A stretch of 64,000 nucleotides of DNA, from positions 1-64,000 of the forward strand of contig CAVYNY010000003.1 of the NCBI GenBank assembly GCA_963769935.1, given 5' to 3'. The position numbers and the translations under genes are program-made. Within the stretch, counting starts at the first letter, position 1. Each line of letters begins with the position of its first letter. A model generated the notes under the pieces. That model made no database searches. It saw nothing but the letters and a program-made list of their open reading frames with translations, and was not told the DNA's origin. Source of the DNA: an uncultured delta proteobacterium (lineage in GTDB: Bacteria > Desulfobacterota > Desulfobacteria > Desulfobacterales > JAFDCJ01). Of the stretch, positions 44,186 to 64,000 are shown piece by piece.

Positions 44186-44320
44186 GGGATGACAGATGAC
44201 AGAGAGCAGAAGGCGAAGTGACAAAAGGAAATCTCGATTACAAATAACTGGACACATCAGCAGGCAGCTACACCCGAAACCTGAAACCTTTTAAACGAAC
44301 TTAACGATTCAAACGAAGAA

Positions 44321-45229: not shown

Positions 45230-45249
45230 ATTAAGGTCCAAGAATTAAT

Positions 45250-46923
45250 ATGAATGATGTAAAAGCTCATGCCAGCGATGTCGTCAATATTTCAGCGTAT
45301 CTGACCAGGATGGCCCAAACTGAACCGTATAAGCGCGCCGTCGTCTGTCCGGCAGGCCGCGATCGGAATCAGCGGGTTGCTTATTCGCATCTGACGTTTG
45401 TGCAGCTGGAACATGAAGTGGATCGATTGGCCTACGGATTGCAGGCTGCCGGCATCAGGCGCAACACTCGAACCGTCTTAATGGTCAAACCCGGCCTCGA
45501 ATTTTTTGCGCTGATTTTTGCGGTATTTAAAACCGGAGCCGTGCCCGTGGTTGTGGATCCCGGAATGGGGATTCGACGAATGTTGAGTTGCTACCGGTCC
45601 ACCCGCCCGCAGGCATTTATCGGCATTCCTTTGGCCCATATGGTGCGAACCCTTTATCCTAAATTTTTTCATACCGTAAAGGTCTGGATAACCGTCGGCC
45701 GGCGCTGGTTCTGGGGCGGTCTGACGCTGAATCAAATTCGCCGCAACGCCTGGCAGCCCTTTCCCCCTGCCGAAACCCGCCGCGACGACATGGCGGCGAT
45801 TCTTTTTACCACCGGCAGTACCGGACCGGCCAAAGGTGCGGTTTACAATCACGGTACCTTTGATGCCCAGCTGCAGCAAATCAAAACCCATTTAAACATG
45901 GCTCCCCATGAAATTGATCTGTCGACCTTCCCTCTTTTTGCCCTGTTTTACCCGGCCTTAGGCGTCACGGCGGTAATTCCGGACATGGATCCCACGCGGC
46001 CGGCCCTGGTAAATCCGGAGCGCATCATCGAGGCCGTCAACAATCAAGGCGTCACCAACATGTTTGCCTCACCGGCCCTTTTGAATCGCGTCGGCGCTTA
46101 CGGAAAGCAAAACGGCGTCAAACTGCCGTCTTTAAAAAGAGTCATTTCTGCCGGGGCGCCCGTATCGGCCGACAATATAGAGCAATTCCGCGCATTGCTG
46201 GGCAAAGCGGCCGAAATTCATACACCGTACGGGGCGACCGAAGCCGTGCCCATCATATCCATCACAAGCAGCGAAATTCTTTCGGAAACCCGGGATCTCA
46301 GCCAAAAGGGATACGGAATCTGTATCGGTCGCCCCATCAACGACATCGATATTAGAATCATAAAAATCAGTGATGATCCCATTGAAACCTGGTCGGACGA
46401 TCTCAGGCTGCCGCAAGGGGAAGTCGGCGAGATCACCGTCAAAGGTGCCCTGGTCAGCCGAGAGTATTTTGAAGATCCCCGGTCGACGGCCCTGGCCAAG
46501 ATAAAAGAAAACGGTGAAATCATCCATCGCATGGGAGACCTTGGCTGGCTGGATGACAAGGGCCGTATCTGGTTTTGCGGGCGCAAGAGCCACCGGGTTG
46601 TCACAGAAAGTGAAACGCTTTACACCATTCCCTGCGAAGCCATATTCAATAATCACCCCCGGGTATTTCGCAGTGCTCTGGTGGGAGTCGGCCCCCGGTT
46701 TCTACAGCGACCGGTTATCTGTATTGAGCTGCACAAGGCAGATGCCGGCCGAAACAAAAAATATTTGAAAGTAGAACTGCTGGAATTGGCGGCAGCTCAT
46801 CAATTGATCAAAAGCATTCGGACCGTGTTGTTTCACCGGTCATTTCCGGTAGACATTCGCCACAACTCAAAAATTTTCAGAGAAAAATTAGCTGTCTGGG
46901 CACAGCAAAAACTGAAAAAATGA
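45250..46923 (+). CDS. oleC: OleC beta-lactone synthetase (AMP-dependent)
   Basis: Motifs FTTGSTGPAKG, HRMGDLG and FPVDIRHNSKIFREKL. Confidence 0.9.
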   Translation: MNDVKAHASDVVNISAYLTRMAQTEPYKRAVVCPAGRDRNQRVAYSHLTFVQLEHEVDRLAYGLQAAGIRRNTRTVLMVKPGLEFFALIFAVFKTGAVPVVVDPGMGIRRMLSCYRSTRPQAFIGIPLAHMVRTLYPKFFHTVKVWITVGRRWFWGGLTLNQIRRNAWQPFPPAETRRDDMAAILFTTGSTGPAKGAVYNHGTFDAQLQQIKTHLNMAPHEIDLSTFPLFALFYPALGVTAVIPDMDPTRPALVNPERIIEAVNNQGVTNMFASPALLNRVGAYGKQNGVKLPSLKRVISAGAPVSADNIEQFRALLGKAAEIHTPYGATEAVPIISITSSEILSETRDLSQKGYGICIGRPINDIDIRIIKISDDPIETWSDDLRLPQGEVGEITVKGALVSREYFEDPRSTALAKIKENGEIIHRMGDLGWLDDKGRIWFCGRKSHRVVTESETLYTIPCEAIFNNHPRVFRSALVGVGPRFLQRPVICIELHKADAGRNKKYLKVELLELAAAHQLIKSIRTVLFHRSFPVDIRHNSKIFREKLAVWAQQKLKK

Positions 46924-47957
46924 ATGCAACACCATTAAATAACCACCAATCGGAAAGCGTCCTGGTTACCGGCGGCGGCGGGTTTTTGGGCGGTGCCATT
47001 GTCAGGCGTCTGGTAGACCGAGGCGATCAGGTCAGGAGTCTGGCGCGAAATCTGCATCCTGCGCTTGAGGCCATGGCGGTTGAACAGATTCAGGGCAATA
47101 TTGCCGATCCGGCAACGGTTGACAACGCCTGCCGGGGCGCCGAGGTCGTTTTTCATGTTGCGGCCAAGCCTCCTCCCTGGGGAGCATACAACGATTATTA
47201 TCAAACCAATGTTGTCGGCACCCGCAATGTTATCGATGCCTGTCTTCACCGGTCGGTTTCAAGGCTGATCTACACCAGTACTCCCAGTGTGATATTCAAC
47301 GGCGGCCATCTGGAAGGCGTTGACGAATCATTTCCCTATCCTGCCAGATACAAGGCCTATTACCCTGCGACCAAAGCCATGGCAGAACGTCTCGTTGTCA
47401 AAGCCGCCGATCAGGGGCTCAACACCATCGTCCTGAGACCCCATGAAATTTGGGGACCGGGCGACCCCCATTTCGTGCCGCGTCTGCTGGCCCGAGCCGA
47501 CAGGTTGAAACAAATCGGAGACGGCAAAAATCTTGTTGATACAACCTACATCGACAACGCAGCGGATGCGCATATCCTGGCTGCTGATAAATTAAAAGAC
47601 AACCCCCGGTTATCAGGCAAGATTTATTTCATCAGCCAAGACGAGCCGATGCCCGCCTGGGACATGATCAACGCGGTCTTAAAGTCAGCCGGATACGGAC
47701 CGGTCAAAGGCAAAGTGTCGTTCCGGGCGGCCTGGCTCATCGGTGCGGTTCTGGAATTCTTCTATAAAACATTTCGCATTTCCGGTGAACCCCAAATGAC
47801 CCGTTTTCTGGCTGAAGCTGTTGCAACTTCCCACTGGTTTAACATCAATGCCGCCAAAAAAGATCTCGGATATCAGCCGCAGGTGTCTACCCGGCAGGGA
47901 TTGGAAAGACTTGCCGAATGGTTGAAAAAAAATACTTCAAAAGGAGTTTCTGGATGA
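46920..47957 (+). CDS. oleD: OleD 2-alkyl-3-oxoalkanoate reductase (3-beta-HSD-like SDR)
   Basis: Motifs TGGGGFLG, YPATKAMAE and LRPHEIWGPGD. Confidence 0.88.
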   Translation: MNATPLNNHQSESVLVTGGGGFLGGAIVRRLVDRGDQVRSLARNLHPALEAMAVEQIQGNIADPATVDNACRGAEVVFHVAAKPPPWGAYNDYYQTNVVGTRNVIDACLHRSVSRLIYTSTPSVIFNGGHLEGVDESFPYPARYKAYYPATKAMAERLVVKAADQGLNTIVLRPHEIWGPGDPHFVPRLLARADRLKQIGDGKNLVDTTYIDNAADAHILAADKLKDNPRLSGKIYFISQDEPMPAWDMINAVLKSAGYGPVKGKVSFRAAWLIGAVLEFFYKTFRISGEPQMTRFLAEAVATSHWFNINAAKKDLGYQPQVSTRQGLERLAEWLKKNTSKGVSG

Positions 47958-48955: not shown

Positions 48956-49606
48956 ATGTACAAACGTGATTTCCAAGCTCCTGAAATGGCTCCATCAGAT
49001 AAAACCACCACGACCTCTGAAACCTCCGACCAGCTGTTCTTGCTTGTTGAACAGGCTAAGGCAGGGAACCGCTCGGCCTTCGCCCAGCTGGCCGACCGAT
49101 TTCATGAAGATATTTATCGCATGGTTTACTACCGCATCAGATCCCGTCCCGATGCTGAGGATATTACCCAGGATGTGTTTTTAAAGATATTTCAAAAAAT
49201 ATCCGGCATCAAAGAGACGGCCAAGTTTCGCGGTTGGCTTTTTAGCATCACGCTGAACCGAATTCGGGATTTTCAGCGCAAAAAACGATTCCGGTCATTA
49301 TTCAAGGCCGAGGATGAAAGTATAGAGTCGCACGCGCCCGAACAAAGCGACCAAGATCAGCCTGATGCGCTGGACCATGTTTTAAAAAAGGATTTTTGGC
49401 GACAAATCGGTTTGATCCTGAACAAACTGTCAAAAATGGAAAAAGAAGTCTTTTTGCTGAGGTTTTTTGATCATCTCAGTTTAACTGAAATCGCGGGCGT
49501 CTTAAAAAAAAACGAAAGCACGGTCAAAACCCATCTGTATCGCGCGCTCGCCAAATTTAAAAGTGAACCCGCAATGCGACGCCTTCTCAATGAGGTTAAC
49601 AAGTGA
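48956..49606 (+). CDS. ECF RNA polymerase sigma factor (1)
   Basis: Region 2 DAEDITQDVFLK/FRGWLFSITLN and region 4 EIAGVL..ESTVKTHLYRAL. Confidence 0.92.
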   Translation: MYKRDFQAPEMAPSDKTTTTSETSDQLFLLVEQAKAGNRSAFAQLADRFHEDIYRMVYYRIRSRPDAEDITQDVFLKIFQKISGIKETAKFRGWLFSITLNRIRDFQRKKRFRSLFKAEDESIESHAPEQSDQDQPDALDHVLKKDFWRQIGLILNKLSKMEKEVFLLRFFDHLSLTEIAGVLKKNESTVKTHLYRALAKFKSEPAMRRLLNEVNK

Positions 49607-50157
49607 ACTCAAATGACAACCACCATTTGGACGAGAATCAATTTATTAAAGCGGTAGTGGATGCATCCGACCTGCCGGAGGCCGTGCAGGCGCATTTGTT
49701 CACCTGCACTCAATGCCGGAACAGAAGGCAAAACTTTGAGCGGGAATTGACCAGTTTAGGCCAAATTGCCGGGCTGTCGGTACCGAAACCGCAAAGACGG
49801 ATCATTTTGCCGGCGCAAAAGTCCACAATCAGATTCTCAAGTTTCTTGGATTGGCGCAGCGTTATTGTGGCAGCGGCGACGGTTGCCGCTGTATTTATGG
49901 TTGTGTGGGGCACCAACATGGCACGCAATTTTTCCGAGCACCGAACCGAAAACCTGACAGCGGAAATACGGGATGCCAATCGACCCATGAGCGAAGTCAA
50001 CTCGCTTGTTGAAAATGCGCTGCCCCCATTTTATTTAGAAATCGCAGATGAACCAAAACCAGATTACGATGAAGAGTTTTATCAATTTTTGATTCCGCCT
50101 GTTGAAGATAAAACCGTAACCTCTGAGCAAGGGAATCGAGGAACTTCATTATGCTAA
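49603..50157 (+). CDS. Zinc-binding (HxxxCxxC) transmembrane anti-sigma factor (1)
   Basis: HLFTCTQC motif and a single TM segment; overlaps the sigma stop codon. Confidence 0.8.
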   Translation: MNSNDNHHLDENQFIKAVVDASDLPEAVQAHLFTCTQCRNRRQNFERELTSLGQIAGLSVPKPQRRIILPAQKSTIRFSSFLDWRSVIVAAATVAAVFMVVWGTNMARNFSEHRTENLTAEIRDANRPMSEVNSLVENALPPFYLEIADEPKPDYDEEFYQFLIPPVEDKTVTSEQGNRGTSLC

Positions 50158-50558
50158 GAAAGATATTCAGTGTCATCTTGCCGGTCATTTTTCTGGTTGC
50201 TCCATTGATTGCCGCGGCTCAGCACGGTCCAAGAGGCAAATGGTGGCATAACCCCCAGATTCAAAAGAATTTGAATTTGAACGAAAATGAAATCGGCAAA
50301 TTGGACCAGCTTTTTGCCAACATCCGCCCCAACCTGATCAAGCTTAAAACGGATGTCGAGCGCGAGCAATTTGAACTGGATCAACTCCTGAGCAAAAAAA
50401 AGGTCGACGATGCTGATGTTAAAAAGCAGTTCCAAAAACTGGAGCAAGCCCGTAAAAATCTTTCCAACGCACGCCTTGACTTTGTGATCGGCGTTCGCAA
50501 CATACTCGGTGCCGATCGCTTCCAGCAGCTCAAGTCCAACTTTCAGAAGTGGCAGTAG
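50151..50558 (+). CDS. Spy/CpxP-like periplasmic protein
   Basis: Signal peptide, GKWW, LNLNENE, helical composition and IL.ADRFQQL. Confidence 0.75.
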   Translation: MLRKIFSVILPVIFLVAPLIAAAQHGPRGKWWHNPQIQKNLNLNENEIGKLDQLFANIRPNLIKLKTDVEREQFELDQLLSKKKVDDADVKKQFQKLEQARKNLSNARLDFVIGVRNILGADRFQQLKSNFQKWQ

Positions 50559-50616: not shown

Positions 50617-51366
50617 ATGGATCCGGCAGCAATTCTCGCTTCACGCGACATCCTGCAAAAAATAGAAACCGTTTGCAGTCGACAGTTCTCTGCTGAAAAC
50701 GACCGGGATGAGTGTTACATCTTCGTGCTTGACAGCCTCAAGGCCGACGATTTTAAGCGGCTGCGGGCCTTTAAAGGCAAAAGCAAATTATCCACCTATC
50801 TGTATTCTCTGATCAACTCCCTGGTTATTGATTTCAGACGCAAAAAATACGGCCGCCGGCGTGTCCCGGCCGCCGTGTTAAAACTCGGCAAGTGGGCTGA
50901 GGCAGTCTACCGGCTGGTGTGCTGGCAAAAGTTTTCCTTTGATGACGCCTATGATTTTCTGCGGGTTGACGGCCTGTATGACGGCAACTATGATCAGTTC
51001 ATACAGGAGATCGAGGCGATCCGGAATGCACCCTGCCGGGAAAATCCGACTTTTAAATCGATCGATGAACCAGACAGAAATTCGGTCCAGCATATGGAAG
51101 CTTCAGGCGCCGATCCGCTGGAGGACCTGATACAAGCGCTTGACAGGGAAAAAAGAATCACAGCCCTCAGGGTTATTCGCGCAACAACGGAGGCACTGCC
51201 GGAGCCCGATCAGATTCTGGTCAGGCTGGTGTTCGGCTCGGGGCAGCCGCTAAGTGCGGCTGCCAAAATCATCAACCTTTCTGCATCCGCAGCCCGCAAA
51301 CGGCTGCAGACTCTTTTATTAAAATACAGAGAAAGTTTGCTGGCCATTGGTATCCGCGAGCCGTAA
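50617..51366 (+). CDS. ECF-like sigma factor (2) with long inter-domain insertion
   Basis: Region 2 RLRAFKGKSKLSTYL..LVIDFRRK and region 4 LPEPDQILVRL..LSAAAKII..AARKRL. Confidence 0.75.
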   Translation: MDPAAILASRDILQKIETVCSRQFSAENDRDECYIFVLDSLKADDFKRLRAFKGKSKLSTYLYSLINSLVIDFRRKKYGRRRVPAAVLKLGKWAEAVYRLVCWQKFSFDDAYDFLRVDGLYDGNYDQFIQEIEAIRNAPCRENPTFKSIDEPDRNSVQHMEASGADPLEDLIQALDREKRITALRVIRATTEALPEPDQILVRLVFGSGQPLSAAAKIINLSASAARKRLQTLLLKYRESLLAIGIREP

Positions 51367-51379
51367 AATGTCCGTCTAA
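51352..51379 (+). promoter_or_regulatory. Shared ECF-type promoter motif, copy 1
   Basis: ATCCGC-N11-TGTCCGTCTAA. Confidence 0.6.
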
Positions 51380-51435: not shown

Positions 51436-52023
51436 ATGGGAAAATGGATCAATAAAAGCATGGCGCCAGCCGTTTCAGAGCAATCCGCTAATCATCCGGC
51501 CATCGAAGATATCGCGCGGCTGGCGGAAGGCAGGGTCGAGCAAGCTGAACGGGAACAATTCCTGCGCCATCTCAACCGATGCCAAAGATGCTACGAAATC
51601 CTGCAGGAAACCCTGATAGACATTGCCTCCGCCAGGCCTTTGCCAAAGGTTTCCGGTCCCTGGTGGAAATCCAAAATCTTTTATGCCTTGGCTGCCTCAA
51701 TTTTACTGGTCATTATCATCGGCGGGCGCCTGGTATTTGAACACCGCAATCAACATCCCCGGATCATAACCGCCACACTTGATATGGATCAGGAGTTAAA
51801 GGACATCCTGCTGGAAGGCGACACCCTGCGGTGGGAGAAGGGACCGCGGCTAAGCCGGCTGGTGGCTGCTCTGCACAAAAAAGGTCTGCAATTTAATGAT
51901 CTGAAAGCTGCTATCCTTGCGCAACCCTACTATCAGAAAAAAAGCCTGTTCGGTCCCGGGGAAGTCCTTCATATTCGCATCGAGAATGGCGTGGCCTATC
52001 TGAAGGTTAAAGAAAAAAACTAG
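51436..52023 (+). CDS. zf-HC2-type transmembrane anti-sigma factor (2)
   Basis: HP...HLNRCQRC motif and the YALAASILLV TM segment. Confidence 0.8.
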   Translation: MGKWINKSMAPAVSEQSANHPAIEDIARLAEGRVEQAEREQFLRHLNRCQRCYEILQETLIDIASARPLPKVSGPWWKSKIFYALAASILLVIIIGGRLVFEHRNQHPRIITATLDMDQELKDILLEGDTLRWEKGPRLSRLVAALHKKGLQFNDLKAAILAQPYYQKKSLFGPGEVLHIRIENGVAYLKVKEKN

Positions 52024-52226
52024 CTTTATGCCCTGCAAATATATTTAAGTAGTCGACGGGAATACTCAATTAGAGTTGCAGCTTTGAACATAAAAAATTC
52101 CAAGCCCCAAATAACTGCTTTTTGGAATTTGAAATTTGCGATTTAGACCTACCTTGTCCCCTTCCCTCTATTCTCAATCCCTTTCGAAAAAAGACATCCC
52201 ACTCAAAAAAAAATAATGAATTATTG

Positions 52227-52253
52227 ATCCGCCATTACCATCTGTCCGTCTAA
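52227..52253 (+). promoter_or_regulatory. Shared ECF-type promoter motif, copy 2
   Basis: ATCCGC-N10-TGTCCGTCTAA, 55 bp upstream of the next gene's start codon. Confidence 0.6.
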
Positions 52254-52308: not shown

Positions 52309-53157
52309 ATGTTAAAAGTGACGTTCAGCAGCTCGGCCCCGAATCCTCCAATTCGAACATGGCGTTGGGTGTTTCTTGGATTGGCCGTTTTTATTTTTAC
52401 TGTCCCGGGATTTCCGGCAGCTGCGAAACAACCCCCTACCATTCAGCTGTTTCCAACCACGGTGGTGGAAAATATCAAGCACACCGGAGAGGCGGCCAAA
52501 GCCATGGAACAGGACCTTCAGAGTGTGATTGACCGCCTGAATCAGCAGGAGGAGCTTTACCTGGCGAGCAAGTGCGAAGGGGCCGCAGCCGAACAGGGCT
52601 GCAATGAAATCGCCGGACAGCTGAGTCAAACCTATCTGGAGATGCTGACCTTGATGGAAACCCGCCTGCCGGGGATGGAGGATTCGGTCCGGGCCACGAA
52701 TACCAGCCTGGAAAGACGGATTCGCACGGAGTTGGGCCGCAAAACAACTCCCCGTGGTCTGCAAAAACTTGTAGATGGAACGCCGCAGCAATCAACTGAG
52801 TCTCCCCGCTACAAGCGAAGGGCGGGAAGACTGAGCGAAAAGTTCAGACAGTATTACAAACTGGTAGCCATGGCCCCCGGATCGGGCGCGGGTGGATCAC
52901 TGGCGGCAGTCGCCGCTGAAATTTACCTTGATACCCAGGAAGTGCAGGAACTTATTGCCCTCACCCGCGATGAAATCAGCCGCGCCAAACTCATGATTGA
53001 TCTCGATCAGGCATACGGCATCATCACGCCGGAAATGTTTGAGATGGTCGGCCGGGTGAAAACGATTATATTTGGCGAGACCGGAGAAGCGGAAGGCATA
53101 CCCAGTCCGCCGGCCGGCAGCGCTAAAGCAGAATATCGCAGCCCCCTTGAGATGTAA
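52309..53157 (+). CDS. Exported helical/coiled-coil hypothetical protein
   Basis: Signal peptide ending AAA, a paired Cys motif, helical composition; GAGGAG RBS. Confidence 0.8.
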   Translation: MLKVTFSSSAPNPPIRTWRWVFLGLAVFIFTVPGFPAAAKQPPTIQLFPTTVVENIKHTGEAAKAMEQDLQSVIDRLNQQEELYLASKCEGAAAEQGCNEIAGQLSQTYLEMLTLMETRLPGMEDSVRATNTSLERRIRTELGRKTTPRGLQKLVDGTPQQSTESPRYKRRAGRLSEKFRQYYKLVAMAPGSGAGGSLAAVAAEIYLDTQEVQELIALTRDEISRAKLMIDLDQAYGIITPEMFEMVGRVKTIIFGETGEAEGIPSPPAGSAKAEYRSPLEM

Positions 53158-53194: not shown

Positions 53195-53767
53195 ATGATT
53201 AAGCTACAAAGTAAAATGAATGCCTGGCGTTTCGACCAAATTTTTCTGATGTTGATAGTCCTCGCACTTTTTCCGGCGGCCTGCGGGAACCGGCAATATG
53301 TTAAACCCGGCTGCACGCTGCCTTCCGGCGTAAATCTTGAAGAAGCGTTGGCGCACTCAAGAGAAGATCTTGGGCACCTGGAGTGCGAAACCATGTTTGA
53401 CGGTTACTATATTAGACTCATTGAAGTCGCCAAACGCGACCCCGCAATACAAAACAAGCGCAAGTTCAGCGATTTTTTGGAATGGGCCAATGGGGAAGGC
53501 ATTATCGATAAGATCCAGGCTCGCGACTACTATAATCGCTACTTCAATACCACCTTCATGTCTCTGCCGGACGATTTTAATGTTTGCTCATCCTGCGCCG
53601 AGAAAACCCAAAAAGATCTCGAATCCCAGCTGGAAGAAGAACTCGGCCAGAAAGAAGAAGGGCTGTTGAGAGCGTGCCAGGATAAAAACGCCTATTACCT
53701 TGCGGCTGATCAATATAACTCCATCATGCTGCTGCTGGACGCCACCTGCACTGCCTGTCGGAACTGA
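53195..53767 (+). CDS. Cys-rich helical lipoprotein
   Basis: PAAC lipobox and multiple further Cys residues; GGAGG RBS. Confidence 0.8.
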   Translation: MIKLQSKMNAWRFDQIFLMLIVLALFPAACGNRQYVKPGCTLPSGVNLEEALAHSREDLGHLECETMFDGYYIRLIEVAKRDPAIQNKRKFSDFLEWANGEGIIDKIQARDYYNRYFNTTFMSLPDDFNVCSSCAEKTQKDLESQLEEELGQKEEGLLRACQDKNAYYLAADQYNSIMLLLDATCTACRN

Positions 53768-53947: not shown

Positions 53948-54661
53948 ATGGAAAACAGATCTCATTCCGTCACGGTCTTTTCAGCCGGCTTTATCACCGG
54001 CGCCCTGGGAGTGCTGGTTATCGGCGCTGCGATGCTTTACATGTTGAACATGTCTGAATTTGTTGCCATATCCGTGTTGAAAATTCCCAGGGTTCAAAGG
54101 GTGCTGACGTGGACCTATGAGAATCTCAGACTCTCGATCATCCCCTTTTTCTTTACTTCGCTGCTGTATACCGGCTCTCTTCTCCGCTTAAAGCGTTATC
54201 TGAAAGATCAGCGCACTCCGGTGGAAAAGATTGCCCAGAGCGAGCAGCTGGTTGATATCTGGATCAATCTATTCTTCGGGATCGGGGTAATTTGGACGGC
54301 CATCGGCATGCGCGGCGCCTTGCTGGACGGAGTCGGTGACTTGAATGCCCAATCGGCAGCACAGCTGGGCGCCTTTTCGATCCTGCAACGATTGGTGGAC
54401 GGCGGAATTTTGCTGGCATTATCCACCACCATCTTCGGTGCCGTCGGCGGCTATCTGCTGCGCCTGATTAAATCCATGGCGGTGGGTACCCAGGTGAAAG
54501 CTTATTACAATCGACTGGCAGAGCAGCAGGCCGACTCAGTTCATAAAGCCCTGCAATCCATCGACGGGCGGGTCCAGGAATTGGTGGGGATACAGAAAAA
54601 TTTAAATAACTTGGCGAACACAACCGATGAAGGTAAAGCTATCCGTCCGCCGGTTATTTAA
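53948..54661 (+). CDS. MotA/TolQ/ExbB-like proton-channel membrane protein
   Basis: Four hydrophobic segments. FFGIGVIWTAIGM and GGILLALSTTIFG parallel the family motifs GLLGTVxG and GIxxALxTTxxG. Confidence 0.7.
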   Translation: MENRSHSVTVFSAGFITGALGVLVIGAAMLYMLNMSEFVAISVLKIPRVQRVLTWTYENLRLSIIPFFFTSLLYTGSLLRLKRYLKDQRTPVEKIAQSEQLVDIWINLFFGIGVIWTAIGMRGALLDGVGDLNAQSAAQLGAFSILQRLVDGGILLALSTTIFGAVGGYLLRLIKSMAVGTQVKAYYNRLAEQQADSVHKALQSIDGRVQELVGIQKNLNNLANTTDEGKAIRPPVI

Positions 54662-54790
54662 AGAAATGCAGGCATCAGGTGTTGAGAAAAAGCAAAAATA
54701 TCAGAAAGGTTTCAATCCCTGCACACCGCAACGGACAATGGACAAACGACAGCGGACTTTGAATAATTGGCGCTCAATTTGGAGCAATCG

Positions 54791-55627
54791 ATGCACCCTT
54801 TATATCCATCGCCAATATCTCTTATCCGGCCCGAGGCTTCCTTTTCAAATGAGGTGGAAGTGCTGCAGACGGATGTCATGCGATTTTTTGCGATATTATG
54901 TCTGTGCCTGATGGCGATATTTGCTCTGGTCAAAACCCTGCCCATGGCCCCTTCGACCGGTCCTCCCACGATGGTCGAACCCACGGACCTTAAAGCAGAT
55001 GTCGAAGCTCTGCAAAAACACATTGCCATGCTCAAAGAGAGGCTTGGGCAGTTAAGGACCCAAGTTCAGGCCGCCGCCGTCGACGCCGAAAAATCAACGA
55101 CCGTGGCTGCCGTTGCGGAAAAAAAAATTAAAGATGAAACGCAACACCTGGCAGAGATACAGGCAAAACTGAAGCGGGAAAGAGTAAAATTGAATCAACC
55201 TCGGTCGGAGAAAAAACCGGCTGAAATATTACCGGCTGAGCAAAAAAATCCGCCGCCTCAGACCGTCAGGCAAGGATTCAGCTTGCGTTTTGCCTCGGAT
55301 GCGGCGCTGCAAAAGCTGATCGACAGCGGGAAAGTAAATTTTTATGCATTAGCCGGGAAAAAAGCCTGGCAATTGCACCTGAGAGACGGACAGCCGGTCT
55401 ATTCGTCGACCCGATTTCCCAGTCAAATTCATGAAATGCAGACTCCCACCGTTCCCACTGAGTATACCGGGGCTTTTCACCGGCAGGTAGCGGCGTTCGG
55501 CCGCACCACGGTGACCTGGGGGGTGACGCTGCCTTCCCCAACTATGTCATCCATTAACCAGCTCATCAAAAGCCGACCCGGGGGTGATCTGATCATCACC
55601 GCGGCCGGCGAGGTCGTTATAAAATGA
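54791..55627 (+). CDS. Single-TM partner with coiled coil (MotB/ExbD/TolR-like position)
   Basis: LQTDVMRFFAILCLCLMAIFALV places an Asp at the TM start, followed by a coiled coil and a globular domain. GGAG RBS before the ATG at 54791. Confidence 0.6.
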   Translation: MHPLYPSPISLIRPEASFSNEVEVLQTDVMRFFAILCLCLMAIFALVKTLPMAPSTGPPTMVEPTDLKADVEALQKHIAMLKERLGQLRTQVQAAAVDAEKSTTVAAVAEKKIKDETQHLAEIQAKLKRERVKLNQPRSEKKPAEILPAEQKNPPPQTVRQGFSLRFASDAALQKLIDSGKVNFYALAGKKAWQLHLRDGQPVYSSTRFPSQIHEMQTPTVPTEYTGAFHRQVAAFGRTTVTWGVTLPSPTMSSINQLIKSRPGGDLIITAAGEVVIK

Positions 55628-57222
55628 CAACCACCAACAACATCGGGACCGGGATCCGGCCGTACATTTTACTCTTGATTTTTATAGGGTTGTCGGCCTG
55701 CAGCGGCCATCAGGTGTACCATGAAGTTGGACTGCCGGCCGGCGGATCGTCGCTTGATACCTGGCTGGAAGATACCCTTATTCCATACCTGCTCCAGCAA
55801 CTCAGCCAGCACCCGCGCTTTAAAGGCCAACCCATTTTGTTGGTCGGCCTGCGCGGCGATGAGGTCCGCTCCCGCGCAGATGACTTGACGGGAGAGATCC
55901 GATCAAAAATCGGCGACGCGCTGCTGAAACAACCCGGTCTCGATCTTGCCTGGCAACCGACCGGCCCGCCACGAGAACACCATCAACGTCTCGCGGATGT
56001 CTCCTGTGGCACTTACCGCAAAATCCAATATTACATCGGTCTGGACTGCGGTTTGACCCGATTGGAGGGCAAGCTTTATGTAAAAGTGCGGGCCTTGAAC
56101 CTTGCCGAACAAAAATGGGTGACCGGCTTCGGCAAATCATGGGAAGGGCGGCCGACCGCAGCCCAGCTGGCGGCTCTGGCGCGCGAACATCCGGATGAAT
56201 ATTTGCGGGGTCGGCGCCAGCTGCCGTTTTCCGAGGAGCAGCCGGATTTGTTGGCTGCCTATTTGGCCCGCAATCTAAGCTGTGTTTTGCGGCAGGCCGA
56301 ATCCGATAATCTGGTGGTGCATGTTGCCAAACCATCCGCAAATTCCCCGGCAGTCTTTAAAACGGCCCTGGAACTTGTGGGAAACTACCTGGCGCGTTTT
56401 CGGGAGGTGGAAGTAACCGATGATCCGAACCAGGCCAATATCACCCTGGTATGCGAAATCCATGCCATCCATCAAGGCTTGCACCAGATCTGGGTCTCTG
56501 CCAGACACCGCCGTGATGAAAAATATCTGCCCGGCGCAGAGACTGAAGCGTATGTGTTGATTGATGCCCATGAACAGATGCAGGTCGCCGGCGCGCAGAA
56601 TGCAAGACCTTATGCGCCCCTGCCCTCCGCCGCGCGCCTATCGAATTCATCTGAACTAATAGCATCATTTGATCTACTGACGCCGATGAATCAGAATTCA
56701 TGTTCAACCGGCGCTCCCTGGCAGTCTGGTGTACGGCGGATTGACTCCCAGGAACGTATTCCGGGCGGCGGCTGTCTGGCCGTAGAAATGACGCTTTCGG
56801 CGGCGGCTTATGTTTTTTTGGTGGGTCAGGATGCCGGTGGTGAATTAACGCAAATGTTTCCATCTGTCTGCACCGGCCGGCAGGAAAATGATGCCCTGCT
56901 CCATCCCGGTCAGCTATTTCAATTTCCATCACTTTCAGATCCCAACGCCGGGGTACTGGAACTTACCGGTTCGCCCGGCAGGGAACGGGTTTTTGCAATT
57001 GCCATAACAAGCCCGGATCTGGCCGATCGATTTGCCGACCGGCTGGTGGAAGTCCAGGACCTGTGCCGACCCGGCAAAATATTTGCCGATAACCTAATAG
57101 CCGGTAATAGCCGAACCTCTGCCGAAGGTATTTATCAATGGCAAGACTACTTGATCCGGCTTTCGGCTGATAATCCCGGTTTGGTCCAGTGGCAGGCAAT
57201 CAGCTTCTGGCACGAGCCGTAG
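55624..57222 (+). CDS. Lipoprotein with C-terminal DUF4384-like domain
   Basis: LSAC lipobox and the pattern AAYVFLVGQDAGGELTQMFP...PGRERVFAIA. Confidence 0.7.
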   Translation: MTTTNNIGTGIRPYILLLIFIGLSACSGHQVYHEVGLPAGGSSLDTWLEDTLIPYLLQQLSQHPRFKGQPILLVGLRGDEVRSRADDLTGEIRSKIGDALLKQPGLDLAWQPTGPPREHHQRLADVSCGTYRKIQYYIGLDCGLTRLEGKLYVKVRALNLAEQKWVTGFGKSWEGRPTAAQLAALAREHPDEYLRGRRQLPFSEEQPDLLAAYLARNLSCVLRQAESDNLVVHVAKPSANSPAVFKTALELVGNYLARFREVEVTDDPNQANITLVCEIHAIHQGLHQIWVSARHRRDEKYLPGAETEAYVLIDAHEQMQVAGAQNARPYAPLPSAARLSNSSELIASFDLLTPMNQNSCSTGAPWQSGVRRIDSQERIPGGGCLAVEMTLSAAAYVFLVGQDAGGELTQMFPSVCTGRQENDALLHPGQLFQFPSLSDPNAGVLELTGSPGRERVFAIAITSPDLADRFADRLVEVQDLCRPGKIFADNLIAGNSRTSAEGIYQWQDYLIRLSADNPGLVQWQAISFWHEP

Positions 57223-57465: not shown

Positions 57466-58289
57466 ATGACTCAACTGCACATTATCACTAAACTAATTAT
57501 CTGCCTGGCCTTGCTTGGATATGGTCAACAGGCGGCAGGCGCCCTTAAAGAAGCCGGATCGGATATTGAGGCGCTGTGGCGCCTTTTTCTGGCCAACGAT
57601 GCGCTGAAATCCCCTGTGATCAGTTTCCCTTATGATCACTGTTTTAATACGGCCGCCCAAAAATATGATCTACCTTTATCACTTCTTCTGGCCGTGGCGC
57701 GCGGTGAATCCGACTTTAATCCCAGAGCCCGGTCGGATCGCAACTGCCACGGATTGATGCAAATCCAGTGGCCCGGAACAGCCAAACATCTGGGAATCTA
57801 TCGACTTGCGGCGCTGTATGAGCCGTGCACCAATATTAGCGCCGGAGCCCGATATCTGAGGGAGCTTATGGACCGCTATGATCAAAATCTGCATCTGGCC
57901 CTGGCGGCATACAACTACGGGCCGAATCGCATCCAGCCCAAAGCCGGACCGGGCCGTATTCCTCAGGGCGCCCAATGGTACAGCGGCTATATTTACCATC
58001 ACCTGGAATTTGTCACCCAGGGGGGGACGCCGCATCCGGCGGCGCAGCGGGCAAAGGGTCGGCCTACGGCCGTGAAAAGCGGCTGGCAATCATAACGTTT
58101 AACCGGCCATATCGAGCGAGCGCATTTTACCGGCACCTTCAAGAACAGGCACCTGCGCTGAAACTCGATTGGTATCGTATCGGTTTGGGAAGGTTTCAGG
58201 TGGTGATGCGGTTCACGGATAAAAAAGCACTGGAAGCCGGCCGCAAAAAATTAAGAACTCTGGGAGTGATCGTCAAAGCCAGGAAATGA
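57466..58289 (+). CDS. Exported lytic transglycosylase (SLT) with SPOR-like C-terminus; frameshift at the G7 tract 58020-58026
   Basis: Motifs AVARGESDFNP, GLMQI and AAYNYGP. The C-terminal domain (IITFNRPYRA...GRFQVVM) lies in the shifted frame. Confidence 0.8.
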
Positions 58290-58388: not shown

Positions 58389-58617
58389 TATAGTTTCATA
58401 TGAGCGCCGCGGCTCTGAGAGCGTCATCTGATAGTGGAAGAAATTCGATGTAGTTTTATAAGTGCCCTCACCGCTGAGAGTCACAGAGAGCGCAGAGATT
58501 ACATTAAAATTTTCTTTCGTCGGCGTTCTCGGCAGGCTCTGCGGTGAACTATCAGTTTCTTTTTCGATCAGATCGGCCGTTGTTTTGACAATGCGGCTTT
58601 GGCGCTGAAACCTGACA
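58389..58617. repeat. Composite dispersed repeat / MITE-like element, copy B
   Basis: TCACCGCTGAG...CTCTGCGGTGA at 58468-58547. AGTTTCATATGAGCGCCG is the reverse complement of 21774-21791. Confidence 0.75.
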
Positions 58618-58733: not shown

Positions 58734-60158
58734 ATGGCTGACAAAAATAAAAAGCTCGGCGGTTTTTGGTCCTATCTTCTCTGGCTGCTGCTGATGTCAT
58801 TGGTCCTCGTTTCAACCTCCAGGGGTGAAGATCGGGCCCTGCTGATCGGTGTCGGACGGTATGCGCATTTCGAAGAAAAGCTCAACGGCGTCAGTCTGGA
58901 TCTCGGCATGATGAAAGAATTATCACAACTGATGGGATTTAAGGAACATGCAATTAAGGTGCTGGAAAATGAGCAGGCATCTACCGCCGGGGTTAATGAG
59001 GCGATTGAAGACTGGTTGATTCGGGGCACCGGACCGCAGGACCGGGTCCTGTTTTATTTCAGCGGGCACGGCTCCCAGGTTCCGGATGAAAACAACGATG
59101 AAAAGGATCATTTTGATGAAGTGCTGCTGCTCTATGATGTGACCCTCACGGAAAGGCAAGGCCGGCAGACATTGAACGGTGTTTTGCTCGATGATCAATT
59201 CGGCAGCATGCTGGCAAAAATCAAAAGCCGCAACATTCTGGTCATTCTCGATGCCTGCCACAGCGGCAGCGCAACCAGGAGCATCCGGCTGACCACCCGG
59301 TCTATTCCGATACACAACGCTCAGGTGAAATACTTCTATTATTCGCCGATGCTGGAGGCAGCCGGCGGCAGCGGCCGGTTCGATGTGATGGAGCCGGATG
59401 CTTCACCGGCGGCTGCAGGCCGCTATGTGGCAATTTCGGCCTGCCGCGACGATGAGATGACGCTTGCCACCGCCCAGGGAAGCATATTCACACTCGGGCT
59501 GCGCGAGACCTTGCGTGCGGCGGCCAGGGCCGGAAAAAGCATTTCGCCCGCAGAATTACAGCGCCGGACGACCCGATTCATTCAGGAACAAATAGGATCC
59601 GAAGGGGCTGCATTTCATCCCCAGATTGCCGGCCAAAAATCCCTTCTTGAGCGTCCTTTGGAACTGGTCTCACTTGCCGGAGGAAGCGGCCCGGTGCGTC
59701 AAAATCTGGAAGCATTGATGCATAAAAGCCATGAAACCGTCTGGATCAATTTAAACAAAATCTGTTTTGAACCTGGCGACGTACTTGAAATATCCGTCAG
59801 ATTATCCGAACCGGGGTATTTGAATGTCGTCAGTGTTCGTCCGGATGATCAGGCCACGGTGCTGTTTCCAAACCAATATCACCGACAGAATGCCGTTGAC
59901 CGGGGCGCGTTGACCCTACCCACCCGTCAGATGAACTTTGAATTGGTGGCCGACGGCCCCCCGGGCACCATTCTGATAACGGCCTTTCTGACCCCTTCAC
60001 CGGTGGACGGCTACAAAAACGGCTTCAAGACCCCGGAGGATGTGATGGCGGGTCTCTCACCCGGTACAACGCGCTCCTTGATGCTGCGCCAAAACCAGGA
60101 CTGGCTGGCCGCCGGCAGGGTAGCCGTTGAAATGCGGGAAAAAGGAGGATGCAGGTGA
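58734..60158 (+). CDS. Exported caspase-family (peptidase C14) protease with DUF4384-like C-terminus
   Basis: Signal peptide; RALLIGVG, FSGHG and LDACHSG form an intact dyad; C-terminal EPGYLNVV..TVLFPNQYH. Confidence 0.88.
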   Translation: MADKNKKLGGFWSYLLWLLLMSLVLVSTSRGEDRALLIGVGRYAHFEEKLNGVSLDLGMMKELSQLMGFKEHAIKVLENEQASTAGVNEAIEDWLIRGTGPQDRVLFYFSGHGSQVPDENNDEKDHFDEVLLLYDVTLTERQGRQTLNGVLLDDQFGSMLAKIKSRNILVILDACHSGSATRSIRLTTRSIPIHNAQVKYFYYSPMLEAAGGSGRFDVMEPDASPAAAGRYVAISACRDDEMTLATAQGSIFTLGLRETLRAAARAGKSISPAELQRRTTRFIQEQIGSEGAAFHPQIAGQKSLLERPLELVSLAGGSGPVRQNLEALMHKSHETVWINLNKICFEPGDVLEISVRLSEPGYLNVVSVRPDDQATVLFPNQYHRQNAVDRGALTLPTRQMNFELVADGPPGTILITAFLTPSPVDGYKNGFKTPEDVMAGLSPGTTRSLMLRQNQDWLAAGRVAVEMREKGGCR

Positions 60159-61036
60159 AATATTTTTTCAAGTTTATCGCTGTCTTGTCGCTAATAATTT
60201 TTACCTGTATTCCCGTGGCGACCCGTATTTCAGCTGCTATGGACTGCCGTCTGGGTGCTGATTACTACTACCAGGCCAAATCCGAAGCCGATCCGCAGCA
60301 GGCTATCCTCTGGTTGAAGCGGTCGGCGCAAGTATGCCCCAATTTCAATGCCTGGTATATGCTCGGGATGATATACACCCGCCAAGGAGAAATTGATCCC
60401 GCCATGGCCGCTTTTATGCGGGCCAGGACCCAGGCTGTTTCCTCCAAAACCGAAGCCCTGGCCCTGGCCCGCCAGGGCGAACTGCTGGCCCGCTCCGGTC
60501 AGCTGCCCCGGGCCCAGCAGGCCCTGGAACTGGCTGGACGGTTTTATCCTGCACCTGCGCCGGCTTGGCTGGAGGCATCTCTTAAGAATACCAGAATTAA
60601 ACTGCAGCAGTCGCTGATAACAGCAGCCGATATCAAGTATGTACTTGAATCCGGCACGCAATTAAGCAAAGACGGCCGATTTGCGGTTCGCCCGGCAGTG
60701 AACCTGCCGGTGCACTTTGACTTCGACCGGGCGGATCTGAATTCAGCCGGCAGCCGTCAGGTGATGGAACTGGGTGGTGCCCTTTCCCACGCAACATTGA
60801 AGCAGTGGTCTTTTCTGCTGGTCGGCCATACCGACAAGCGCGGATCCATGGCCTACAATCAGACGCTCTCCGAAAGTCGCGCCTCTTCGGTAAGGATAGA
60901 ATTGGAACACAGCTTTCCTTCGCTCATCGGCAGGCTGCAAGCCATGGGACGCGGCGAGACCGAATTACTGTACGACGGCGACAGCGAAGAAGATCATATG
61001 CTCAATCGCCGCGTGCAGGTGACGCTTTATCATTGA
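60149..61036 (+). CDS. Exported TPR + OmpA-C (peptidoglycan-binding) protein
   Basis: Signal peptide, TPR helices, and motifs VHFDFDRADL, GHTDKRGS..YNQTLSESRA and NRRV. Confidence 0.88.
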   Translation: MQVKYFFKFIAVLSLIIFTCIPVATRISAAMDCRLGADYYYQAKSEADPQQAILWLKRSAQVCPNFNAWYMLGMIYTRQGEIDPAMAAFMRARTQAVSSKTEALALARQGELLARSGQLPRAQQALELAGRFYPAPAPAWLEASLKNTRIKLQQSLITAADIKYVLESGTQLSKDGRFAVRPAVNLPVHFDFDRADLNSAGSRQVMELGGALSHATLKQWSFLLVGHTDKRGSMAYNQTLSESRASSVRIELEHSFPSLIGRLQAMGRGETELLYDGDSEEDHMLNRRVQVTLYH

Positions 61037-61215
61037 AAATTGAAGATTGAAGATTGAAGATTGAAGATTTATGGAGTCGCCTCGCTCCAACTTTCAATTT
61101 AAATATTTTCAAAACCAAATCCGTTTGCAGCAAGATGTTTAATTGATAATGCGATATTTAAAATTTTGGCTAAAATCGATAGGATTCCGCCAATTTTCAA
61201 TCTTCAATTTTCAAT
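61032..61215. repeat. Inverted heptamer-array element (ATTGAAG)n ... (CTTCAAT)n
   Basis: ATTGAAG x4-5 at 61032-61068, with TTTCAAT/CTTCAAT repeats at about 61191-61215. A similar element lies at 20210-20332. Confidence 0.75.
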
Positions 61216-61254
61216 AAATTACATTTCACCCTGATTAGGAATCTGTTTGTACCA

Positions 61255-64000
61255 ATGATTAGAGGACATAAAAAAATAGCGCTGTTGACGATATTGCTCT
61301 GGCTGGCCGGCGGCATTTCCCTGCCTGCCCTTGCTGAAAATCATGCCCTGCTGATCGGTATCGGCAAATACCGGCAGCGCACACTGGAGGGGCCGCCCTA
61401 TGATGTTGCGGCGCTTTCTCGAGTGCTTGCGGCGCAGTATGATTTTCAAAAGGAAAATATCCGTACGCTCGTAAATGAAGAAGCCGTCAAGTCCAGAATC
61501 CTTTCTGAGATCGAGCGTCTGACGCATCACACCCATCCCGGAGACCGGGTATTCATTTATTTCAGCGGTCACGGAACCAGCCGCCGGGATGAAGTGCTGG
61601 CGCTTCCGCTGCCGTACAGCACCGGTGCGCTGGTGCCGGCTGATTTTGAGGCTGATCCCGCTCAACCGGTTGAAAAACTGCTGTCGCAGCTGATCATCGG
61701 CAGACGCGACCTGCGGCCGGCGCTGGAGCGACTTGATCGGGACCGACAGGTCCTGATGGTTTTTGATACCTGTTTTTCAGGCAATACCATCCGAGCCATT
61801 GGAAATCATAAAACCGCAAATTTAAGCCGCTACCTCCCGCTGCCGTCAAGAAGTGTCTTCAAAGCGGAGCGGGAAATTGGAAGCTTTGAGGAAAATTTGA
61901 ATCTGGATGACCCATATCCCTATCAAAATATTTTTTATATTTCGGCGGCTTCGGAAAATGAAGTCGCCAAGGATATCCAAAAAGATACCTTGGACTTATA
62001 TCCGACCATTGACGGCAATCCCCATGGGGTTCTGACGGACGCCCTTTTAAGGGTGCTGGCGGGACAAATGCGCGTCGACACCGACAACGACGGCCGGTGG
62101 AGCCAGATTGAGCTGTATGCGGCTGTCAAAAAAGAGGTTCAACGGCGCTTCCAACAATCGCCGCAGGCCTTGCCCAAGGTAGGGACCCGCACCGATCGGC
62201 TGTATTCGAGAACCTTTTTTGTGCGTTCGGCAAAAGCGGTTGCCACAGCAGGCGGGCACCCGGCCGAACCGGCGCCCGGCCGCCAGGGCGCGAATTATCA
62301 ATCGGGTTATTCTTCTTCCCATGCGCTGGTGGTTGGCATAAACGAATATCGACACTGGCCGCGGCTCGAATATGCCGCCAATGATGCCAGGGCAATGGCC
62401 GCCAGGTTGAAAGCACAGGGCTTTCAGACTTACCTGCTCACCGATGAGCAGGCCACGCTGAAAAATATTCTGGCCGGACTGGAAACGATTCGCCGCAGCA
62501 TTGATGAGAATTCACGGATGATGTTCTATTTTGCCGGGCACGGTCAGACCGAGGACCTGCCTGGAGGACGGGAAAGAGGGTATATCGTGCCGGTGGATGC
62601 GGATGCCTACAACTGGCAGCGTACGATGCTGCCCATGGATCGGTTGAATCAAACTATCAGGCAGTTCAAAGCCAAACATATCCTTATGGCCTTTGACTCC
62701 TGTTACTCCGGACTGGGGTTGACTCGCTCGATAAAAGGTCGTCCCGATCCGGATTCCGCCTACATTCAGAAAATGATGCACTCCCGAAGTATTCAGATAC
62801 TGACAGCGGGCAGCCGTTCCGAGCAGGCCATTGAAGCTGCCGGCCACGGACTGTTCACGGACCAACTGCTGGCCGCCCTCGCGGGGGCGGCGGATATTAA
62901 TTCCGACGGATACATTACGGCGACCGAAATTTATGCCACCCTGCGTCCGGCCATAACCCAGAAGTCCTATAGCCGCCAGACCCCGCAGTTCGGCTATATC
63001 GAGGGCAACGGCGATATTATTTTTCTTAATACTTCCCGCGAACCAGAACCTGCCGCCGTTGTTGTTGATACTGCAATTAGCGGCATCGACGTATGGGCCG
63101 GCACCTCTGAAATCGGTCACCGCCTGCCGGCCGGACGGCATCAGTTACCGGCTCTTGCGGGGCAAACAGCTCTGATCGTTAAAAAGGGCGGACGCACCCT
63201 TTATCGAAAGAATGTGCTGCTGTCCGCCAACAGGGTGTTTTCAATCCAGATCGGCGCAACCATTGCGACATCACACCCGCCGGAAGCATTTTCCACGATT
63301 ACTATTGCCAATCATAGCGTCGACAATTATTCAAATTCGATTGCCTATGATCTGGACGGTGACGGCCGGGAGGAGATGGTGACCGCCTCGGATAACCGGC
63401 TTTTTGCTTTCAGGTCCGACGGCACCATCATCTGGGAAAAAAAATTCCATTTCCCGATCACCTTGGATCTGATTGATGACTGGAATTCGCAGCCGGCCAT
63501 TGGGCTGTCCGCCGTGAATGAGGATACAGTTCACCTGGTGCTGCTTGACCAGCGGGGAGAGCAAATTTGGCAGCATGTCCGAAAACTTACCCGCTATTAC
63601 AACGGCAAAACCGACGGCGGGGGAAAGATTGCCGGGCTGGCGGACGTCGACCGGGACGGCCGCCAGGACGTCGTGGCCTTTGCCACGGCAGAATACACCT
63701 TAAAGCCCCGCGGCATCATCGTGTACGACGGTCGTGCCCGTGAACTGTGGCGCTACACAATCGGACCCGCTCCACAAAGCATCGTTGTCTGGCAAAAAGA
63801 TTCAGGACGACCCGACATCATCATCGGAACGTACAGCCCGGGCGACGGAAATCGCGACTTAACCAACAACACCAGCGATATGCAAACCTACATCATCAGT
63901 GTCGACGGTTTTGGCAAAGCAAACTGGCAGATCCCGGTCGGCGGGTTTTACAGCGGGGTTGTCGTGCTGCCGGCCGGTCTGAAGGACCCTGCCCGTCGCT
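61255..64000 (+). CDS. Exported tandem double-caspase (2x C14) protein with PEGA-like and FG-GAP/beta-propeller repeats (3' partial; absent from ORF track)
   Basis: Manual translation from the ATG at 61255 stays open to the window end (915 codons). It has a signal peptide, FSGHG/FDTCFSG and FAGHG/FDSCYSG dyads, and DLDGDGREE and DVDRDGRQD repeats. Confidence 0.88.
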   Translation, partial: MIRGHKKIALLTILLWLAGGISLPALAENHALLIGIGKYRQRTLEGPPYDVAALSRVLAAQYDFQKENIRTLVNEEAVKSRILSEIERLTHHTHPGDRVFIYFSGHGTSRRDEVLALPLPYSTGALVPADFEADPAQPVEKLLSQLIIGRRDLRPALERLDRDRQVLMVFDTCFSGNTIRAIGNHKTANLSRYLPLPSRSVFKAEREIGSFEENLNLDDPYPYQNIFYISAASENEVAKDIQKDTLDLYPTIDGNPHGVLTDALLRVLAGQMRVDTDNDGRWSQIELYAAVKKEVQRRFQQSPQALPKVGTRTDRLYSRTFFVRSAKAVATAGGHPAEPAPGRQGANYQSGYSSSHALVVGINEYRHWPRLEYAANDARAMAARLKAQGFQTYLLTDEQATLKNILAGLETIRRSIDENSRMMFYFAGHGQTEDLPGGRERGYIVPVDADAYNWQRTMLPMDRLNQTIRQFKAKHILMAFDSCYSGLGLTRSIKGRPDPDSAYIQKMMHSRSIQILTAGSRSEQAIEAAGHGLFTDQLLAALAGAADINSDGYITATEIYATLRPAITQKSYSRQTPQFGYIEGNGDIIFLNTSREPEPAAVVVDTAISGIDVWAGTSEIGHRLPAGRHQLPALAGQTALIVKKGGRTLYRKNVLLSANRVFSIQIGATIATSHPPEAFSTITIANHSVDNYSNSIAYDLDGDGREEMVTASDNRLFAFRSDGTIIWEKKFHFPITLDLIDDWNSQPAIGLSAVNEDTVHLVLLDQRGEQIWQHVRKLTRYYNGKTDGGGKIAGLADVDRDGRQDVVAFATAEYTLKPRGIIVYDGRARELWRYTIGPAPQSIVVWQKDSGRPDIIIGTYSPGDGNRDLTNNTSDMQTYIISVDGFGKANWQIPVGGFYSGVVVLPAGLKDPARR

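Follow-up and report, generated by a model that had tools for sequence, protein, structure and literature searches.

Motors of the 5:2 type drive flagella, uptake, outer-membrane constriction, gliding, and phage defence. The flagellar MotAB family is marked by an expanded cytoplasmic torque-generating domain of at least four helices (PMC12505986), and for pairs of a TolQ-like protein with TPH-vWA proteins, described there as occurring without tolR/exbD, direct force transfer has been proposed (Williams-Jones 2025, PMC12204202). The DNA analysed here, a stretch of 64,000 nucleotides referred to as the window (positions 1 to 64,000, forward strand, of contig CAVYNY010000003.1, assembly GCA_963769935.1), originates from an uncultured delta proteobacterium of the Desulfobacterales. 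It encodes two neighbouring membrane proteins, the A subunit (53948..54661, + strand) and the B subunit (54791..55627, + strand), which form the core of a conserved and apparently undescribed operon. Judged by sequence, the pair is likely, although not proven, to be homologous to the 5:2 motors of the MotA/TolQ/ExbB/ZorA superfamily, and it would represent a variant of the known motors, not a new kind, with a function that we infer.

An earlier reading, made from the letters alone (the sequence-only reading), had described the pair as an orphan. This is not the case: A and B are surrounded by constant partner genes, and this operon as well as its promoter had been missed. The same arrangement, namely U1, U2, A, B, C, [X], SLT, is found across 166 loci (80 from genomes, 80 from metagenomes, and 6 fetched), which are not independent and fall into 34 clusters at 70% identity, with two likely duplicates. 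Besides the gene order, an invariant Asp28 of B together with Thr117 and Thr161 of A, exported partners, a transglycosylase domain, and two lineage-specific promoter motifs were observed.

Subunits A and B

The A subunit (237 amino acids, aa) contains four predicted membrane helices. Thr117 (codon 54296-54298) is part of the motif WTAIGM and Thr161 (codon 54428-54430) of ALSTTIFG, and both align with the two Thr of TolQ/MotA/ZorA. An alignment of 116 sequences brings together the window's A, 4 close homologues, and 111 of the 150 representatives listed, after removal of fragments and of sequences of unusual length. In it, Thr117, Gly120, and Gly164 are invariant at identities down to 27%, and Thr161 is kept in 115. 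The Thr/Gly motifs pointed out by the sequence-only reading are thus retained throughout, and the conservation of these residues and of the Asp of B is far above chance. Homologues of A are 185-260 aa long. According to AF2, helices 47-86 and 92-129 are joined by a link of 5 residues. An aromatic residue stands where known motors have the pore Gly. One of the aligned homologues also matches the CrcB fluoride channel (E 5.5e-24), possibly due to a fusion or mis-assembly.

Beyond coiled-coil noise, no Pfam, NCBIfam, or PADLOC family was matched by A or B of the window. The ZorA2 hidden Markov model (HMM) matches 17 of the 116 A homologues (best 6e-6), with no curated cut-off passed. In two fold searches ZorA, TolQ, and ExbB rank at the top, but tied; in profile alignments to known motor subunits the Thr pair on the last two helices is in register, and Atlas neighbours of A include MotA_ExbB. 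The outcome of a shuffle control on the homology signal was mixed. Taken together, the ZorA2 HMM, the two fold searches, the profiles, and the Atlas neighbours, five weak lines of evidence, suggest that A is akin to the 5:2 motors. A stator-like pair with a membrane Asp, as first read, finds support from homology evidence that is weak but consistent.

Most likely B starts at ATG 54791 (278 aa) rather than at TTG 54767, since the deposited gene call and the homologues begin there. Except for this slight shift and for the distance of the TPR-OmpA gene (4.5 instead of about 5 kb, see below), the open reading frames, motifs, and Asp position are as initially given. A short N-terminal tail is followed by a single transmembrane helix with Asp28 and Arg31, a coiled-coil spacer, and an unclassified C-terminal domain (approximately 55271-55624). 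The Asp (codon 54872-54874, motif QTDVMRF) is located directly N-terminal to the sole hydrophobic stretch (residues 29-47), and AF2 predicts a helix at residues 66-135 and then a confident alpha/beta domain at 162-277.

Asp28 is conserved in all B homologues in which it was checked: in 76 of 76 non-self genome loci that have a B gene and were taken without selection, in each of 143 B genes found by a pattern that does not require Asp, and in the 78 sequences of an alignment of B (65 of 73 usable loci, 12 close proteins, and the window's B). Among 120 close homologues 119 matched the pattern and one was not inspected. On this point the sequence-only reading withstood the first check that it had set itself. 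The Asp also occurs in three distant loci whose B C-terminal domains are merely 18-20% identical. Arg31, i.e., Asp+3, is present in 75 of the 78 aligned sequences as opposed to 0 of 24 known-type B proteins. In case of locus L041, the Asp sits in a frameshifted frame fused to A, and further frameshifts are present. In L071 (1119-2753, on a 3.5 kb contig), A and B share one frame of 544 aa, which is either natural or an assembly slip.

The coiled coil of the window's B is 55 residues shorter than in the usual form of 333 aa. This short form is considered real, since a contig of run X2, which may be the window's own source, spans 54176-55492 without gaps. Across 99 B proteins the spacer measures 61-261 residues, with helix and C-terminal domain kept; in distant Desulfobacterota loci it is Pro-rich or contains FN3, as in the B homologue of L089 (1008-2120), where an FN3 domain is situated between helix and coiled coil. 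Due to this free variation between two retained ends, the spacer may serve to hold the C-terminal domain toward the wall or the outer membrane.

In agreement with the sequence-only reading, the periplasmic part of B, a helix and an unclassified domain, is not of the OmpA type: no match to OmpA-C (PF00691) was obtained for the window's B or for 43 homologous C-terminal domains. Likewise, PF02472 (ExbD/TolR) was matched neither by B nor by its C-terminal-domain homologues, and vWA by none of the 43 domains. Foldseek searches with B against PDB and BFVD returned no C-terminal-domain match at E<=0.001, matched rows against VIA cover residues 15-140 only, i.e., the coiled coil, an Atlas search with the domain gave no usable match, and its best PDB sequence match has an E-value of 0.078. 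Among 7,996 candidates scored, which were restricted to longer proteins, the domain had 104 matches, all of them B-sized (244-391 aa). A new fold is conceivable.

Partner genes and occurrence

B directly follows A in 140 of 141 loci, with one transmembrane helix. For all partner genes, only loci with enough contig room for the gene in question were counted: U2 was found in 135 of 135, U1 in 103 of 104, C in 86 of 92, and SLT in 73 of 76 loci. Distant Desulfobacterota loci retain A, B, and SLT. U1 (52309..53157, +) encodes an exported helical protein of no known family with an invariant Cys pair, and U2 (53195..53767, +) a Cys-rich putative lipoprotein, also of no known family, with a lipobox-like LFPAAC read from the sequence. 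The start of C (55624..57222, +) overlaps the stop of B; its product is a putative lipoprotein with N-terminal alpha/beta domains, weakly FlgO/CsgG-like (FlgO-like P 0.005, probability 7%), and DUF4384 (PF14326, E 2e-8). SLT (57466..58289, +) encodes an exported lytic transglycosylase (PF01464, E 7e-27) with a SPOR-like tail, and its ES motif is present in 58 of 58 sequences. The tail of the window's SLT (58019-58289) is out of frame, one G being missing in a G run at 58019, which splits the gene; this is an assembly error, since the additional G is present in contigs from two runs, each of a different study. U1, U2, C, and SLT all start with N-terminal hydrophobic or lipobox-like stretches.

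X is an optional membrane protein consisting of a transmembrane helix and a linker, whose end is homologous to the SLT tail (probability 96.8%). SLT tail and X resemble SPOR weakly (hhalign P 0.001 and 0.018), with no Pfam hit at the level of PF05036. After removal of cross-matches to the SLT tail, X was found in 40 of the 66 loci that have 7 kb or more of downstream room, which represent 20 lineages at 70% identity and underlie the TPR-OmpA and caspase counts as well; in the window's genome X was not found. For U1, U2, C, X, and the SLT tail, profile searches of PDB sequences gave nothing significant, nor did a Pfam search with the profile of C.

Most of the operon is covered by contigs from relatives in two metatranscriptome runs of a single study; this is no proof of transcription. 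Two short intergenic stretches of the window (58480-58600 and 61030-61075) are multi-copy repeats, with raised depth and numerous loose ends in each of the four runs. In L045 (14566-17159) and similar gammaproteobacterial loci, SLT is followed by a small exported gene, presumably YcfJ-like, and then on the opposite strand by what we take to be a PepSY-like gene and a two-component pair.

The closest named homologues of the pair belong to Desulfobacterales metagenome-assembled genomes, and hosts of the operon include sediment sulfate reducers and tubeworm symbionts. The spread is patchy, amounting to about 1% of Desulfobacterota and of Gammaproteobacteria: the operon is truly present in 4 of 301 Desulfobacterota genomes (the window's genome counted), in 4 of 400 Gammaproteobacteria genomes (the seed counted, one genome unscored), and in 12 of 23 genomes of the window's own genus. 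On viral contigs no relative of A was found. A literature search, outside of which lay subscription journals and supplements such as the tables of PMC12204202 and PMC12505986, found no description of the operon. The papers found on DUF4384 concern caspases, kinases, CRISPR, or Deinococcus. A link via DUF4384 to type III-E Csx30/RpoE (bioRxiv 2022.08.17.504292) was dropped, as nothing beyond the common domain was seen.

Putative promoters and regulators

Upstream of U1 lies a gene for an extracytoplasmic function (ECF)-type sigma factor (50617..51366, +; TIGR02937, E 7e-12, over the cut-off), followed by one for a putative zf-HC2-like anti-sigma factor with one transmembrane helix (51436..52023, +; weak matches to PF13490, E 0.016, and NF052375, E 0.004). 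The 10-mer TGTCCGTCTA has exactly two perfect matches in the window. One follows the sigma gene (51369..51378, +) and is likely an ECF -10 element before the anti-sigma gene; the other precedes U1, where the putative promoter of the operon lies (52222..52252, +; TGATCC-16 bp-CGTCTA). Of 34 Desulfobacterales-type loci, 31 carry the motif upstream of U1, and a TGAYCC-like element precedes CGTCTA by 16 bp, a spacing that we take to be ECF-like. The site between sigma and anti-sigma gene was observed in 16 of 16 loci. Of 80 genome loci, 17 have the sigma factor beside the operon (one as a weak opposite-strand match); in the window's lineage it is the likely regulator of the operon.

In the Gammaproteobacteria a two-component pair, presumably PhoP/PhoQ-like, often adjoins the operon. 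Instead of the ECF site, 45 of 47 gammaproteobacterial loci carry TTCAG-N6-TTCAG, which equals the PhoP consensus of P. aeruginosa (PMC3156716). Two different envelope-sensing regulators on one operon favour a role in envelope upkeep.

In the window's genome, the 10-mer occurs 6 times. One copy, on the minus strand of another contig (C30:21534), is located about 65 bp before genes that we take to be lolE-lolD-bamA-like, and is retained in 3 of 12 genomes that bear the operon and in none of 11 others; a wider ECF regulon including these genes is a lead only. Directly upstream of the operon's sigma factor, at 48956-50558, the window encodes a second ECF sigma factor, an anti-sigma-like protein, and a Spy/CpxP-like exported protein (PF13801). 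Further upstream (43145-47957), four genes (thiolase, alpha/beta hydrolase, AMP ligase, and dehydrogenase) presumably resemble oleABCD of long-chain olefin synthesis.

Proposed function and alternatives

Tentatively, and as a whole a little short of probable, the pair may form an A5B2 proton motor in which B spans the periplasm and acts on the lipoprotein-transglycosylase module in envelope stress. By analogy with the solved families, five A would surround two B helices and protons would pass a Thr ring to Asp28, with B as axle plus periplasm-spanning transducer carrying its own unclassified domain. Going by its anatomy, this C-terminal domain might engage lipoprotein U2 or C. The SPOR-like domains of the SLT tail and X would place the module on cut glycan, and the module, likely stress-induced, would remodel the cell wall via the neighbouring lytic transglycosylase. 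A complex prediction of A4B2 (A 8-205 and B 10-62, with alignments) scored 0.01 in two runs, without folded controls and with an uncertain partner fold, and gives no evidence either way.

It is tempting to go further, at greater risk of error, and to speculate that the pair represents a new branch of 5:2 motors unseen by the family models, which has an Asp-x-x-Arg helix and an unclassified, possibly new-fold head on a variable spacer and directly energises a wall-repair machine of transglycosylase and lipoproteins. Control of this branch would have been gained separately, by an ECF sigma factor in Desulfobacterales and by PhoP in Gammaproteobacteria, and in one lineage TPR-OmpA would have taken the place of the SPOR-like X as wall anchor. 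If the pair is a motor, energised wall remodelling would be a further use of such machines, and the superfamily would extend past the reach of the present family models. How general the accepted ion path is could then be tested on the Arg next to the Asp and on the aromatic residue of the pore motif, and the compact operon of six or seven genes is amenable to expression and structure solution.

Alternatively, A and B might have lost rotation, as a relic or side branch of the 5:2 fold, and act as a membrane scaffold or ion-gated sensor, with Asp28 paired with Arg31 and anchoring wall-remodelling proteins. The Arg, the aromatic residue in place of the pore Gly, homology signals that are each weak on their own, and the lack of a TonB/TolA-type partner (only 1 of 43 X helices contains the His) would fit. 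We nevertheless consider this unlikely, as both Thr and the Asp are kept almost without exception at 27% identity, the ion-path pattern of ZorAB, and motors lacking a side transducer have already been proposed in print.

A motor for trans-envelope export or surface motility, following the logic of GldLM or AglRQS, in which the transglycosylase merely opens an assembly hole and U1 is cargo or shaft, appears improbable. The spacer of B is long as in GldM, one of the two lipoproteins is weakly FlgO/CsgG-like, and such machines have dedicated transglycosylases (PMC11444678). However, no conserved outer-membrane barrel, pilin, ATPase, or adhesin was seen in the neighbour clusters, and promoters of the ECF and PhoP types suit stress better.

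About equally little credit is given to a Zorya-like anti-phage system, in which the pair would detect perforation of the wall and set off a response, here via caspases. Two caspase-domain genes flank the TPR-OmpA gene of the window, one encoding an exported, lineage-specific accessory caspase-domain/DUF4384 protein (58734..60158, +; PF00656, PF14326) and the other a two-caspase-domain FG-GAP protein (61255..64000, +) that continues past the window end and is 1102 aa long in the genome. In these sequences (58734-64000), signal-like N-termini and His/Cys motifs can be seen. Caspases also flank the distant loci L087 and L089. ZorA is the nearest relative by HMM and fold, the spread is patchy, and caspases adjoin 21 of 66 loci; they are absent from the other 45, though, A has no ZorA-like tail, B no OmpA domain, every constant partner looks exported, the neighbour clusters contain no conserved cytoplasmic nuclease or helicase, and the position is stable within lineages, with dedicated promoters.

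The sequence-only reading had proposed that the TPR-OmpA protein (60149..61036, +; PF00691, E 1e-11), a lineage-specific accessory encoded 4.5 kb downstream of B, supplies a peptidoglycan anchor in trans. It was observed downstream in 19 of 66 loci (11 of 80 genome loci), which belong to 1 of 20 lineages, and always beside caspase genes (19 of 19). A candidate in L044 was a different, upstream protein and was excluded from the counts. In 10 of 10 other operon-bearing genomes no full-length orthologue was found, only generic OmpA-domain matches, which start at profile position 135 or later of 287. TPR-OmpA cannot be the anchor of the family, and the proposal is mostly unsupported. X and TPR-OmpA are mutually exclusive (X in 0 of 19 TPR-OmpA loci vs 40 of 47 others), so that TPR-OmpA possibly replaced X in the window's lineage, which speaks for the proposal. 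A split MotB is accordingly very unlikely: the shared strand and the 4.5 kb distance in 19 loci, the exclusion of X, and a different OmpA-domain gene 8.6 kb downstream in the distant locus L088 are outweighed by its absence from 47 of 66 loci and from the 10 genomes, its constant link to caspases, its separation from B by three genes, and an exclusion that rests on one evolutionary event.

Comparison with known systems

The window's genome contains a separate canonical tolQRAB-pal locus, two canonical motAB loci, and a true TolQ-like/TPH-vWA locus. Thus, the A/B pair is an addition to these systems and not a stand-in.

By both HMM and fold, A finds its best match in ZorAB of Zorya I and II; AxxT[TS]xxG and GxxxTxxG are in register, Asp-x-Met opens the B helix, and the link between the first pore helices is short. 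In contrast to ZorAB, the pair has neither the long ZorA tail nor an OmpA-type domain on B, A has an extra N-terminal helix, and the partners are exported envelope proteins. ZorC, ZorD, or ZorE were not seen among 11 window proteins; neighbour clusters were read by eye, without a PADLOC scan.

With TolQR/ExbBD the pair shares adjacent A and B genes, the Thr pair, DVM on B, and neighbouring genes for lipoproteins and wall proteins. It differs by the missing PF01618/PF02472 matches, the missing TolA/TonB with the SHLS His, and the long spacer and apparently different C-terminal domain of B. Similar to the TPH-vWA family (PMC12204202), a pentamer-type gene occurs without tolR/exbD, B consists of an Asp helix, a coiled coil, and a globular domain, and force would be transferred directly; by contrast, the domain of the window's B is not vWA, a single B gene replaces the heterologous pair, and A stays below PF01618. 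L092 (G000:C20:516500-521400) encodes a PF01618 protein, an FHA protein, and two Asp-helix/coiled-coil/vWA proteins, and matches this family.

Four predicted membrane segments in A, the ALxTTxxG motif, and the Asp on B are common to flagellar MotAB/PomAB. The window's A, however, has the 5-residue link in the AF2 model and not a torque-generating domain, B carries no OmpA-C, and no flagellar genes are nearby. GldLM/PorLM is alike by working analogy, with B as a long periplasm-spanning shaft touching lipoproteins (PMC9389320); type IX secretion genes are missing, and a sequence link was neither sought nor seen. As far as sequence and predicted structure tell, the pair does not show the defining features of MotAB, Zorya, Tol/Ton, or TPH-vWA, and its nearest relative is ZorA.
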